Positions 3,826 through 41,980 of a stretch of 53,874 nt of DNA are shown one piece after another. Source of the DNA: Candidatus Shapirobacteria bacterium CG03_land_8_20_14_0_80_40_19 (lineage in GTDB: Bacteria > Patescibacteriota > Microgenomatia > UM-FILTER-40-11); the NCBI GenBank assembly GCA_002780305.1, contig PEVD01000019.1, positions 1 to 53,874 of the forward strand, read 5' to 3'. Position 1 is the stretch's first letter; every line of letters starts with the position of its first letter. Made by a program: the position numbers and the translations under genes. A model generated the notes under the pieces. That model searched no databases, was not told the DNA's origin, and was given only the letters and a program-made list of their open reading frames with translations.

Positions 3826-4539
3826 TCAAACAGGCTTGGCAATTACGATAAGCCTTTTAAGAGAAGTGCCTGGCGGCCAGCAGGTTTGCAGGATTAATTT
3901 TTCTCCATTTACATCGGGGGTTAGCCAGCCGGTGTTATCAGCTTCGACTGTTTCCTTACCGGAGACCTGATACTCGAATTTTTGGCCGGCATAAAAAACG
4001 ATAACTTTATCGCCGGCCTCCAACTCTTTAAGTAAATAAAAGATCGCGTTGTAGGTTGCAACATTGGACTGCACGTTGGTTGAATGGCTAAAAAGAAAGA
4101 TATTGCCGCCGCCTCCCGGGAAATCGGTTCCATAGGCGTGAGCGATACCTTGTTTTAAGGCGGCGGTATATTCTTCCTTATTGCCCGGATCAACATTAGG
4201 GATAATTTGGGCCTTGGCGTTGATTTTGGGGATAACCAAAGAAAAGTCAGTTGTTACTCCATAACCTTCGGCTTCCTGGGCGATCAGTTTTTGTCTGGTA
4301 ATTTCCTCTTCACGGTTGATTTGGCCGAAAGTGGCTTTAGCATTTATTTCCTGCTGTTTTGGTCCAAAACGAAAGATTGCTTCCTTAACCAGGGAGGGAG
4401 AAGCGGCATAAAGTCCGACCGCAAAAGCGATTATAAGTAGATTATAACCAATATTTTTTGACAGCTTGCCCAAGAGGGGTCGAAGGTCGGTTTTAGCAAC
4501 AGTCTGAGGCCGGTGGCAATCATAAATAACAAATTCCAT
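3826..4539 (-). CDS. sortase family transpeptidase
   Basis: N-terminal membrane anchor, conserved His region (IFLFSHST), catalytic TLxTC-type motif LILQTCWP, and downstream Arg (KRLIVIAKP). Confidence 0.85.
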   Translation of the reverse strand: MEFVIYDCHRPQTVAKTDLRPLLGKLSKNIGYNLLIIAFAVGLYAASPSLVKEAIFRFGPKQQEINAKATFGQINREEEITRQKLIAQEAEGYGVTTDFSLVIPKINAKAQIIPNVDPGNKEEYTAALKQGIAHAYGTDFPGGGGNIFLFSHSTNVQSNVATYNAIFYLLKELEAGDKVIVFYAGQKFEYQVSGKETVEADNTGWLTPDVNGEKLILQTCWPPGTSLKRLIVIAKPV

Positions 4540-4545
4540 GGTTGT

Positions 4546-4554
4546 ATTATATCA
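4546..4554 (-). promoter_or_regulatory. extended -10 (TGaTATAAT) 6 nt upstream of the sortase ATG; leaderless-type promoter
   Basis: Minus strand reads TGATATAAT-ACAACC-ATG. No Shine-Dalgarno is possible in 6 nt. Confidence 0.45.
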
Positions 4555-4578
4555 TATCCTATAATGCATAAGAAGCCC

Positions 4579-4607
4579 TTGACAATAATTGACTTATAGT
4601 TTATAAT
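4579..4607 (+). promoter_or_regulatory. consensus sigma70-type promoter upstream of the LPXTG protein gene
   Basis: TTGACA, a 17-nt spacer, then TATAAT: exact consensus hexamers about 35 nt upstream of ATG 4643. A second TATAAT at 4632-4637 lies 5 nt from the ATG. Confidence 0.5.
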
Positions 4608-4642
4608 CCCAACGAGTTATTGATAATCCTATATAATTCAAA

Positions 4643-5281
4643 ATGAATAAAACAAAAGTTTTTTTAGCCACCCTTTTGGCCGCAGGAGCCATTTTGTTAT
4701 CTTCTGATTCTGTTTTCGCGGCTGTCCGTTGTGAGACCCAATACGGTGGGAATGAGGTTTGTGTGACTACCGGTGAGCTTCAAATTGATAAAGAAATTTT
4801 AGATCCCCGCTATGCCGGTGCATACAAAGACAACCTTTATCTAACCGATTATCTGTTTAAAACCGGTGATTATGTCACTTTTAAACTGACGGTTAAAAAT
4901 GTTGGCGACGACACTTTAAATAACGTTAGAATAACCGACAACTTGCCTTCTTTCTTGTTTTTTACCGGTGAAACTCCTCATGAATTTACAATTGACCATT
5001 TGAATCCGGACGAAAGTGAGAGTTTTGAAGTTAAGGCTCGGGTTGTGGCGGAAAGCCAGCTTGAAGCGGATCGAATCTGCGGGGTTAATACGGCCGAAGT
5101 TTGGGCGGACGGCGACCAACACGATAAGGATACCTCCCAGGTTTGTGCCACCAAAAAGGTTTTGGGAGTATCGGTTCTTCCGGAAACAGGCGACAACACT
5201 CCGCTTATTATCTTCGGAGCTTCTCTGGCGATTGCCATGCTCGGACTTGGTCTAATCAAAGTCGGCCGGAAAATAGCGTAA
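4643..5281 (+). CDS. LPXTG-anchored surface protein with DUF11-like repeat domain (sortase substrate)
   Basis: Signal peptide (LLSSDSVFA/AV). C-terminal LPETG followed by a hydrophobic helix and a basic tail (GRKIA). Mid-region VTFKLTVKNVGDDTLNNVRITDNLP is typical of DUF11-type repeats. Confidence 0.85.
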   Translation: MNKTKVFLATLLAAGAILLSSDSVFAAVRCETQYGGNEVCVTTGELQIDKEILDPRYAGAYKDNLYLTDYLFKTGDYVTFKLTVKNVGDDTLNNVRITDNLPSFLFFTGETPHEFTIDHLNPDESESFEVKARVVAESQLEADRICGVNTAEVWADGDQHDKDTSQVCATKKVLGVSVLPETGDNTPLIIFGASLAIAMLGLGLIKVGRKIA

Positions 5282-5327
5282 GTTATACGAAGCGCTTATA
5301 CGGTTCTGCTCTTTGAAATAAACGAAG

Positions 5328-39955: not shown

Positions 39956-40136
39956 TTTTATTTCTTTATGATATATTCAAAACAGAATAAACTTTCCCTC
40001 GAGCAGTCGAGGGAATTTTTTTATAGTTATTTTCTCTCTAAAACCTCTCTTAATTTCTTAAGATTTATATACTTGTCACAATTTTTAATTAGTTCGATAT
40101 ATCGAATATTACCATTTTTTAACAAAATTTGGAAAG

Positions 40137-40832
40137 TTAGGGAAGCAGGAAGACTGTTTTGGCCAGGGGGATTTTACCCTCCGCCGTTTCCGGGTAAACA
40201 ATTATCATTTTTTGCCCTACTTTAAAATCGCTGAATTTTAGAACAACTTTTTGGTCTTTTTGGTTGACCAAGTAAGAAGTCTTGTCAATTTTTACCTGAA
40301 AAGTTTGAAAAGAAAGGGTGAAAGTCTTGCTGTTGGCTTCGGTAATCGTGCCGTAAAAGATTAGTTTTTTGGCTGGAATTGTTTTCGGCGGGGCGATAAC
40401 GGTGATTCTTTGAGCCTCGAGAGTTTCGTTTGCATCCGGTTCGCCCAGAGCGATGATTTTATCGTCTAAGGCCAAATCTTTCGTTAAGATTTCTTTTTTG
40501 TTTGTTCCGACAATAACGGTATCATCAATAATCCTGACCCTTTGTTTACCGCGGAAATTGGTCAACGTTAGGGTTGAATCGGTAATTTCCAAAATATTTC
40601 CGACATAAGCCTTTTTCTCAATTTTTTCTTTTATTTCCGTCAGCTGGTCTTTGATCGCCTGTCTTATTTCTAAGACTTTTTCTTCTTCCGGTCCGGTTGG
40701 CCCGCCCTGAATCGCCGAAGGCGAGGCAGGAGCGATAGTCGCCGAAGGGGAAGCGGTTGGAGTGGCCGCCATAACAGGGGAATAAAAAATAAAAAATAAA
40801 AGATAAAAAATTATAATTCGAGTTTTGTTCAT
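40137..40832 (-). CDS. secreted hypothetical protein
   Basis: Signal peptide (LLFFIFYSPVMA) and an Ala/Pro/Ser linker, followed by beta-rich repeats. Overlaps the upstream gene, so it looks operonic. Confidence 0.5.
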   Translation of the reverse strand: MNKTRIIIFYLLFFIFYSPVMAATPTASPSATIAPASPSAIQGGPTGPEEEKVLEIRQAIKDQLTEIKEKIEKKAYVGNILEITDSTLTLTNFRGKQRVRIIDDTVIVGTNKKEILTKDLALDDKIIALGEPDANETLEAQRITVIAPPKTIPAKKLIFYGTITEANSKTFTLSFQTFQVKIDKTSYLVNQKDQKVVLKFSDFKVGQKMIIVYPETAEGKIPLAKTVFLLP

Positions 40833-41260
40833 ATTTCGGCGGTACTATAAACAACAGTCAGGGTTTTGCTGATTTGAGTTCCGTCCGGCTCAATAGCGGT
40901 GATAATAATTTCGTTTTCGCCGGAAACCAGAAGCAAATCGGTTTGGAAGTTTCCTTTTTCATCTGACTGAACCACCTTTTCCCCTTTTTCGCCCATAATC
41001 AAAATCCAAGAAAGGGGAGAATTGGAGCCGACGATAGTCGTTTTTCCGTCTTGAGAAATTGATTGGTCTATCGGAGAAATGATTTTTAAAGATTTTTCAA
41101 AGGCAGGACTGGTTTGGGTTAAAATCTCATTATTATTGGCAAGCGGACTGAGTATCTCGTTGCCCGCGTTTCTTCCTAATTGTGATTTATAAATAAAGAA
41201 GGTTAAGACCAAGCCGATGACAAATCCGATAGTAATAGCCAAGATAACTTCTTTTTTCAT
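40829..41260 (-). CDS. membrane-anchored hypothetical protein (Ig-like C-terminal region possible)
   Basis: N-terminal TM helix. The C-terminal region (KGNFQTDLLLVSGENEIIITA) is reminiscent of bacterial Ig-like folds. Confidence 0.45.
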   Translation of the reverse strand: MKKEVILAITIGFVIGLVLTFFIYKSQLGRNAGNEILSPLANNNEILTQTSPAFEKSLKIISPIDQSISQDGKTTIVGSNSPLSWILIMGEKGEKVVQSDEKGNFQTDLLLVSGENEIIITAIEPDGTQISKTLTVVYSTAEI

Positions 41261-41290
41261 GCTGGCCTATGATATTTTAAAGAATTGTTA

Positions 41291-41320
41291 TTGTCAAGAA
41301 TAACCAATCAATGGTAAAAT
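41291..41320 (+). promoter_or_regulatory. promoter: TTGTCA, 18 nt, then TGgTAAAAT, 6 nt upstream of the MBL hydrolase ATG
   Basis: -35 TTGTCA at 41291-41296. Extended -10 at 41312-41320, then CAATTT-ATG. Confidence 0.5.
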
Positions 41321-41326
41321 CAATTT

Positions 41327-41980
41327 ATGGAAGTTATATATCTGGGTCATTCTTCTTTTAAATTTCGGGGTAAGTCCGTAACGGTAGTGACCGATCCTTA
41401 TGATCCGGAATATGTGGGTCTAAAATATCCGAAAACCGAAGCCGATATTGTGACCGTTTCTCATGATCACCCGGATCATAATTTTATTTCCATTGTCGGA
41501 GGGGGGCCTTTTGTCATTAGCCAGCCGGGGGAGTATGAGATTAAAGGTGTTTCTATTTTTGGCTTTTCTTCATATCACGATGACAAACAGGGAGCGGAAA
41601 GAGGAAAAAATATTATCTATTTAATTGAAGTTGACGGGTTTAGAATTTGCCACTTGGGAGATTTAGGGGAGAGACTGTCTTCTGAACTGATTGAAGAAAT
41701 CGGTACTGCCGATATTTTATGCATTCCGGTCGGTGGGAAAGTCACTTTGGGGACGAACGAAGCGGTTGAATTGACTGCCCAGATTGAACCGTCGATTGTT
41801 CTCCCGATGCACTTTAATCTACCCGGTATAAATCAAAAGATTTTCGGAGATCTTAACCCGGTTGATGAATTTTTGTCAAAAATGGAAGTTGAAGATAAAA
41901 CTGTTTTGGATAAGCTGAGCATTTCAAAAGATAAACTGCCCGAAGAAACCAAAGTAGTAATTCTTGAGAGAAAAGGTTGA
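41327..41980 (+). CDS. MBL-fold metal-dependent hydrolase (UPF0173-like)
   Basis: The VSHDHPDH motif, with later His/Asp ligands (CHLGDLG, LPMHF). Confidence 0.8.
   Translation: MEVIYLGHSSFKFRGKSVTVVTDPYDPEYVGLKYPKTEADIVTVSHDHPDHNFISIVGGGPFVISQPGEYEIKGVSIFGFSSYHDDKQGAERGKNIIYLIEVDGFRICHLGDLGERLSSELIEEIGTADILCIPVGGKVTLGTNEAVELTAQIEPSIVLPMHFNLPGINQKIFGDLNPVDEFLSKMEVEDKTVLDKLSISKDKLPEETKVVILERKG

Follow-up and report, generated by a model that had tools for sequence, protein, structure and literature searches.

Boxes next to start codons in the window

Our subject is a TATAAT-like box that recurs a few nucleotides (nt) upstream of start codons in contig PEVD01000019.1 of Candidatus Shapirobacteria bacterium CG03_land_8_20_14_0_80_40_19 (assembly GCA_002780305.1). 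The whole contig, 53,874 nt long, is called the window here. It is one (C54) of the 62 contigs of a metagenome-assembled genome (MAG) of 715,774 bp, which has 39.7% G+C and is rated 96% complete. The organism is also present in the JGI metagenomes 3300025850, 3300025868, 3300008008 and others, and as NCBI assembly GCA_002786995.1. Genes with such a box include those for a sortase, RecR, RuvC, YchF and ribosomal protein L31 (rpmE). We will argue that the boxes are likely to be promoter elements, and that the mRNAs made from them would begin at the start codon, without a leader.

Judged by YchF, whose nearest named matches come from Candidatus Roizmanbacteria (56% identity), Peribacteria and MAGs labelled 'Patescibacteria group', the nearest named relatives of the genome are Microgenomates/Roizmanbacteria. 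The standard genetic code fits: open reading frames (ORFs) of at least 200 amino acids (aa) under table 11 make up 77% of the genome, and on that ground an alternative code was set aside.

For counting, a box was defined as TATAAT with at most one mismatch and with T1, A2 and T6 fixed, and the spacer as the number of nt between the hexamer and the start codon. A preliminary description of the window had listed 13 boxes. All 13 lie at the coordinates and on the strands given for them; the ATG follows after 6 nt at ten and after 7 nt at three (rseP-like, radical SAM and Ham1). The TGn extension is also present where it had been claimed, at five of the 13. About ten more start-abutting boxes lie in the window, and those marked as new in the following list are among them.

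4546..4554, minus strand: TGATATAAT, extended -10, 6 nt 5' of the sortase ATG (4539); Sortase domain match
4632..4637, plus strand: TATAAT, 5 nt 5' of ATG 4643 of a DUF11/LPXTG-like surface protein gene, divergent from sortase; new site
5850..5858, minus strand: TGCTATAAT, 6 nt 5' of the hicB-like ATG (5843); the longest ORF begins at 5861, within the box region; weak HicB match
14055..14060, minus strand: TATAAT, 6 nt 5' of ATG 14048, which opens a small ORF that diverges from the rseP-like gene; new site
14095..14100, plus strand: TATAAT, 7 nt 5' of the rseP-like (M50) ATG (14108)
19397..19405, plus strand: TGGTAGAAT, 6 nt 5' of the recR ATG (19412)
23705..23710, minus strand: TAAAAT, 7 nt 5' of the AmmeMemoRadiSam radical SAM ATG (23697)
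23728-23733, minus strand: TTGATT, -35 of the radical SAM promoter, overlapping the ruvC ATG
23721..23726, plus strand: TATAAT, 6 nt 5' of the ruvC ATG (23733)
28202..28207, minus strand: TATAAT, 8 nt 5' of ATG 28193 of a 273-aa membrane enzyme; new site
28901..28906, minus strand: TATAAT, 6 nt 5' of the ATG (28894) of a DUF5678 gene, previously called a 'protease partner'; -35 is TTGAAG-N18
29452..29479, minus strand: promoter TTGACA-N16-TATTAT with a perfect TTGACA, 9 nt 5' of the ORF171 ATG (29442), AGGA also there; new site
29526..29531, plus strand: TATAAT, 6 nt 5' of ATG 29538 of a 'hydrolase' gene; no family match, start unconfirmed
30600..30605, minus strand: TATAAT, 7 nt 5' of the Ham1-like ATG (30592)
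30669..30674, plus strand: TAAAAT, TGn-extended, 6 nt 5' of the ATG of ORF 30681
31817..31845, plus strand: promoter TTATCA-N17-TGTTATAAT, 6 nt 5' of the ychF ATG (31852)
32928..32956, plus strand: promoter TTGACA-N17-GATAAT, 8 nt 5' of the ORF101 ATG (32965); new site
37773..37778, minus strand: TATAAT, 6 nt 5' of the rpmE ATG (37766)
41269..41320, both strands: bidirectional unit consisting of ATG 41260 (minus strand), 8 nt, TATCAT (minus), N17, a palindromic -35 TTGTCAA (41291-41297), N18, TGGTAAAAT (plus), 6 nt and the MBL hydrolase ATG 41327; the promoter of ATG 41260, TTGACA-N17-TATCAT, is a new site

Eight of the 13 starts are backed by family profiles that align from residues 1-7 of the protein; the profiles are from Pfam, apart from TIGR04337 for the radical SAM protein. 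Residues 3-151 of RuvC align to profile positions 1-148, residues 1-63 of L31 to 1-63, and residues 7-49 of RecR (HhH) to 1-43. For the others the alignment begins at residue 6 (M50, profile position 2), residue 5 (Ham1, position 3; YchF, position 2), residue 3 (MBL, position 2) and residue 7 (AmmeMemoRadiSam, position 4). At four genes the box calls for a downstream ATG and not for the longest ORF: hicB-like (5843), hydrolase (29538), DUF5678 (28894) and radical SAM (23697). The last of these is the start that TIGR04337 favours. No family match was found for the hydrolase or for ORF 30681, and the Pfam matches of the hicB-like and DUF5678 proteins are weak, sub-threshold and do not fix their N-termini.

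Two arrangements in this part of the genome may be mentioned in passing. The -10 of rpmE directly abuts the TAG stop codon of an EamA transporter gene, with zero gap (tagTATAAT; 37773-37781), so the rest of the rpmE promoter lies inside the 3' coding end of the EamA gene. The genes for the sortase and for the DUF11-repeat LPXTG-like surface protein (window 3826-5281) are divergent, each with its own start-abutting TATAAT box.

Spacing across the genome

A hexamer coding model called 709 genes in the MAG. Starts were assigned blind to any motif, as the first ATG, and 673 genes entered the box counts. For spacers of 0 to 12 nt, the numbers of boxes are 5, 5, 9, 6, 3, 4, 50, 34, 18, 17, 10, 14 and 6. 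The profile therefore peaks at a spacer of 6 (50 boxes), followed by 7 (34), where the background is about 6. The profile of the 2586 in-frame internal ATGs is flat, with no peak.

The preliminary description had proposed comparing this spacing with that in shuffled upstream DNA. The peak at 6-7 nt goes well beyond what A+T-richness provides: a box with one of these spacers precedes 91 of the 673 genes, while dinucleotide shuffles of the 60 nt upstream yield 9.8 +/- 3.4 and shuffles of the 30 nt upstream 12.8 +/- 3.2. The excess amounts to about 24 standard deviations. In all, the boxed genes exceed the background by about 95-105, which is 15% of the genes. The same peak emerges when gene calls are ignored. 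Both strands together hold 5562 strict boxes; an ATG stands at spacer 6 in 106 of them, at spacer 7 in 104, and at other spacers in 39-78. An ORF of at least 60 aa is opened by 58% of the ATGs at spacers 6 and 7, compared to 27-31% elsewhere.

Control loci from other phyla, passed through the same pipeline, show no peak at spacers 6-7:

Clostridia/Bacilli: 97 genes, 35% G+C; 0 boxes at spacer 6 and 1 at spacer 7; strong Shine-Dalgarno peak
Bacteroidota: 120 genes, 40% G+C; 1 and 1; no Shine-Dalgarno signal
Other phyla: 147 genes, 54% G+C; 1 and 1; clear Shine-Dalgarno peak

Promoter partners and position of the genes

Neither the TGn extension nor the -35 region played any part in selecting the boxes, yet both accompany them. 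In the spacer-6 class (n=53) there is T at -15 in 34 cases and G at -14 in 34, and T at -35 in 38 and at -34 in 26. The latter positions put exactly 17 bp between a -35 hexamer and the -10. In the spacer-7 class the TTG is displaced by one position. TGn is found at 43% of the 91 start-proximal boxes, at 4.7% of genic boxes and at 8.9% of other intergenic boxes. A -35-like hexamer, scored at 16-18 bp, is found at 37%, 9% and 14%, respectively, and at least one of the two features at 69%, 13% and 21%. Fisher p values for start-proximal versus other boxes range from 1e-6 to 1e-26. An independent consensus scan recovers the promoters of ychF, DUF5678, radical SAM, ORF171 and ORF101; it yields 66 sites in 20 kb, with 43 +/- 6.7 expected.

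The frequency of a box at spacer 6-7 depends on where a gene stands relative to its neighbour:

Divergent genes: 22.8%
Same strand, gap of 16-50 nt: 26.5%
Same strand, gap of 0-15 nt: 13% (17 of 131)
Same strand, gap above 50 nt: 10%
Overlapping the upstream gene: 1.6% (2 of 129, which is chance level; neither has TGn or a -35)

The boxes had been described as belonging to the first genes of transcription units, and this holds: the frequency is 23-27% at the heads of units against 1.6% at overlapping genes. With about 381 candidate unit heads (divergent genes or gaps above 15 nt), 18% are boxed at spacers 6-7 (69 heads) and 24% at spacers 5-9 (92 heads). For divergent genes together with gaps of 16-50 nt, the share at spacers 5-9 is 32%. 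These fractions are lower bounds because start assignment was naive.

Transcription-unit boundaries were not taken from terminators, since intrinsic-terminator-like hairpins are not enriched (25 in window 13000-32999; shuffles, 22.6 +/- 4.6). Classical terminators probably do not mark the ends of transcription units.

The boxes also discriminate between start codons. One precedes 11.2% of candidate ATG starts, 4.7% of GTG and 1.0% of TTG.

Shine-Dalgarno sequences and coupled genes

The genome uses a second signal as well. In the 20 nt 5' of starts the enriched k-mers are TATAAT (48 found, 10.3 expected), AGGAG (44, with 10.7 expected) and AGGAGG (13, with 1.3 expected). A Shine-Dalgarno (SD) sequence, counted as a 5-mer, is present at 44 genes. 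It precedes 18-19% of genes with gaps of at most 15 nt or above 50 nt, versus 9-10% of divergent genes and genes with gaps of 16-50 nt. Box and SD occur together in just 8 of 122 boxed genes.

It had been suggested that the anti-SD at the 3' end of 16S rRNA be inspected. No 16S rRNA gene was found in the MAG, so the anti-SD was read in relatives instead: GGATCACCTCCTTTCT (anti-SD CCUCCU) is intact in 17 of them, three of the same family and 14 of the same class. SD is native to this genome.

This changes how one gene in the window is to be seen. A LysM gene (6409-7308) has AAGGAGG at 6394..6402 on the plus strand, 6 nt 5' of its ATG (6409), and the preliminary description took it as a contrast case whose SD pointed to foreign origin. 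The SD is real; as a mark of foreignness it fails, given that AGGAG and AGGAGG are enriched genome-wide. The gene is atypical by composition: its G+C is 61%, more than four standard deviations from the gene mean of 39.7 +/- 4.5%, and its flanks have about 40%. It is probably a recent acquisition or encodes a compositionally biased protein. For a gene of this length it scores low in the hexamer coding model.

The statement that operon-internal genes mostly rely on overlapping stop and start codons was too strong. Only 129 of the 260 same-strand pairs with a gap of at most 15 nt overlap, 63 of them by the 4-nt ATGA.

The homologue of rpsA (C47:2135-3139 in the same genome) encodes 371 aa that match positions 9-343 of a 516-position profile, about four S1 domains. 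A similarly short ribosomal protein S1 homologue is seen in nearly all of the 40 relatives sampled.

The boxes in relatives

Three genes of the window were followed in other genomes, and the locus counts include the genome itself (ychF with 21 relatives, recR with 29). The YchF N-terminus, M[SNK]L[SK][IV]GIVGL, pins the start. A box lies 5-9 nt upstream at 14 of 22 ychF loci, in 8 of them at exactly 6 nt; several of the unboxed loci have an SD-like sequence instead. For ruvC there is a box at 15 of 30 loci (at 6-7 nt in 10), and for recR a box at 5-9 nt at 21 of 30 loci (at 6-7 nt in 11). An SD was seen at only two loci each for ruvC and recR. At all three genes the DNA flanking the box is unrelated between relatives, while the distance from box to ATG is kept across the class.

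Random 100-kb samples were taken from seven genomes of the class, three of them in the same family and four in others. The peak at spacer 6 appears in 7 of 7 (87 of 676 genes overall). Sixty genomes from the phylum's other classes, sampled at 20 kb, have 41 boxes at spacer 6 over a background of about 8. The signal from those other classes is weaker (56 of 972 genes) and uneven among genomes, and it goes with a stronger SD signal. The box-to-ATG architecture is common to the family and the class and patchy over the phylum.

Two genes show peculiarities in some of the relatives. YchF in relatives G002 and G003 (both of the same family), G012, G024, G026, G028, G033 and G036 matches in two blocks, at about 1-138 and 196-358, from ORFs of 270-340 aa. 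In the middle (helical insert) domain these proteins seem to be about 55 residues short, compared with the 359-aa YchF of the window. The recR matches of relatives G011, G015, G023, G032, G033 and G034 each have one in-frame TAG or TAA in the aligned region, which could be a matter of sequencing error, pseudogenisation or recoding.

Compact intergenic regions

There are 57 divergent gene pairs in the genome. In a quarter of them the start codons are no more than 43 nt apart, and eight pairs are doubly boxed. In four of these eight the intergenic region measures only 35, 38, 38 and 40 nt:

Window 23698-23732: radical SAM/ruvC, 35 nt
C40:3940-3977, same genome
C51:23632-23669, same genome
C13:12431-12470, same genome

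A distance of 35-40 nt between two ATGs leaves no space for a leader. The two promoters of such a pair have to overlap each other's start codons, and competition for polymerase is probable there. The 66-nt region 41261-41326 is near-perfectly symmetric: its palindromic -35 (TTGTCAA) is common to both promoters and stands N17 and N18 from the two -10s.

How the boxes may work

We consider it likely, and hold this with good though not complete confidence, that the boxes are -10 elements of sigma-70-type promoters and that the mRNAs of the unit-head genes behind them begin at the ATG. The promoters would often be TGn-extended and often have a -35 at about 17 bp; the start codon's A follows 6-7 nt after the final T of the hexamer. 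Transcription would begin at that A or 1-2 nt from it. The resulting mRNA would lack a 5' leader and a ribosome-binding site (RBS), and would be translated via direct recognition of the 5'-terminal AUG. The usual distance from the -10 to the transcription start site (TSS) is about 7 nt (PMC12641261). At the most frequent spacer, 6, the start codon's A is the seventh base past the hexamer, which is that distance. The preliminary description had already suggested leaderless mRNAs, and the suggestion is strengthened by the TGn and -35 partners, the gene context, the preference for ATG, the conservation of spacing and the divergent regions of 35-40 nt. From the motif, its geometry and statistics, its context and its conservation we infer where transcription would start and how the mRNA would be translated.

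Several observations weigh against this interpretation. The public contigs that encode the rpmE product (L31) are all assembled from DNA and carry the upstream gene too; no transcript contigs were among them. Boxed genes, genes with SD and other genes do not differ in fold energy from +1 to +36, in A content of codons 2-6 or in second-codon usage, and in all gene classes the 5' end is less structured than the gene interior. The hicB-like, hydrolase and DUF5678 starts are plausible but unconfirmed: each depends on preferring a downstream ATG, and no family alignment pins the N-terminus. The fraction of boxed unit heads, obtained with a strict motif and naive starts, is 18-24%, at the low end of the published genomes with leaderless genes of this type ('group C', see below). 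Finally, the boxes at 8-9 nt imply leaders of 1-3 nt and not of zero.

The alternative that survives best is that the promoters are real and that the genes are also, or mainly, expressed from leadered or polycistronic mRNAs, or that transcription starts a few nt upstream, leaderless mRNAs being a minor product. Boxes do occur within same-strand clusters, as at rpmE, which follows the EamA gene after 12 nt, and at 17 of the 131 genes whose gap is 0-15 nt. Spacers of 8 and 9 are enriched along with 6 and 7 (18 and 17 boxes against about 6), and the unenriched terminator-like sites make read-through plausible. We nevertheless find this alternative improbable. The modal spacer sets the A of the ATG exactly on the canonical +1. 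The divergent pairs separated by 35-40 nt could host upstream promoters for leadered mRNAs only inside the neighbouring gene, and the boxed genes are without the SD that a leadered copy would need.

We regard it as considerably less credible that the TATAAT-like motif is no promoter but serves the translation of a leadered mRNA, either as a non-SD RBS or as an A/U-rich element bound by S1, of the Bacteroidota 'group B' type. The motif does stand at an SD-like distance from the start, and an S1 homologue with four domains is encoded. However, TGn and -35 accompany it at promoter spacings, and Bacteroidota examined with the same pipeline show no peak. The gene context is decisive here. Group B motifs precede operon-internal genes as well as first genes; our box precedes 23-27% of unit heads and 2 of the 129 internal genes that overlap the gene upstream.

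Chance occurrence in A+T-rich intergenic DNA, or misassigned starts, is invited by a G+C content of 39.7% and by the sheer frequency of TAnnnT hexamers (the 5562 strict boxes), but we give it almost no weight and count it as refuted by the tests run, given the excess over shuffles, the flat profile at internal ATGs, the identical annotation-free peak, the absence of a peak in the more A+T-rich Clostridia and the starts of YchF, RuvC, RecR, L31 and others, which are pinned by conserved N-termini.

Returning to promoters that abut the start codon, we think the genome is best read as mixed. Some 18-33% of unit heads would be of the leaderless type, and other genes SD-led or coupled through overlapping stop and start codons. 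This would be a genome of the 'group C' type.

Comparison with known systems

Group C was defined with GeneMarkS-2 (Lomsadze et al. 2018, PMC6028130) and comprises Actinobacteria and Deinococcus-Thermus, where about 25-50% of operons are predicted to be leaderless. In group C a Pribnow box lies 6-8 nt before the first genes of operons, comparable to the peak at spacers 6-7 before unit heads here, and in both cases a separate SD-type RBS precedes other genes. The differences are as follows. The present genome belongs to Patescibacteria, for which Candidate Phyla Radiation (CPR) is another name, and is small (about 0.7 Mb) and low in G+C. It has the full TATAAT, often with TGn and a -35, unlike the degenerate TANNNT of high-G+C Actinobacteria. 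Its share of boxed unit heads lies at the lower end of the group C range.

Leaderless transcriptomes have been mapped in Mycobacterium tuberculosis and M. smegmatis and in Deinococcus deserti (Cortes 2013; Shell 2015; de Groot 2014, as cited in PMC6028130). The likeness extends to a -10 about 7 nt upstream, the lack of an SD and a preference for ATG (or GTG), with the TSS on the start codon in those organisms. In them the proof came from differential RNA sequencing (dRNA-seq) and proteogenomics, whereas our TSS is deduced from sequence geometry and conservation.

Within CPR, a 2025 paper in Nucleic Acids Research, which reuses 188 TSSs of N. lyticus TM7x, gives the -10-to-TSS distance as more variable there. 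The ribosomes of CPR have been surveyed by Tsurumaki et al. (2022, PMC9297842), who describe a short bS1 of 3-4 domains and an anti-SD that is kept outside a subgroup of Parcubacteria. A short S1 and an intact anti-SD are also what we find. That study treats ribosome composition and anti-SD loss, and not the geometry of promoter and start or leaderless mRNAs. Our full-text literature search retrieved no description of leaderless expression in CPR, the nearest SD-related match being the loss of the anti-SD in some Parcubacteria. We are dealing with a known mechanism, in a lineage for which no report was found.

Implications

A broader proposition is that leaderless initiation is a conserved major mode of expression across the Microgenomates-type class, patchy in Patescibacteria, and goes together with compaction of promoter and ATG into one unit. 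We lean only slightly towards accepting it as a whole.

Several consequences can be considered. Gene starts in CPR are mostly predicted by gene callers trained on SD. Such callers will misplace the starts of genes whose signal is instead an ATG-abutting promoter. Leaderless mRNAs need neither SD nor recruitment by S1, and they would fit a lineage of reduced ribosomes and short S1.

The divergent pairs show that as little as about 35 nt of intergenic DNA can separate two genes. The unit of promoter plus ATG may be a device of genome compaction, as in the divergent promoters of the 35-40-nt regions and in the palindromic -35 common to two promoters, in which overlapping sites and competition between polymerases may couple the expression of neighbouring genes. 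If leaderless initiation is confirmed as a major mode here, CPR would be the third large bacterial clade with it, after Actinobacteria and Deinococcus-Thermus.

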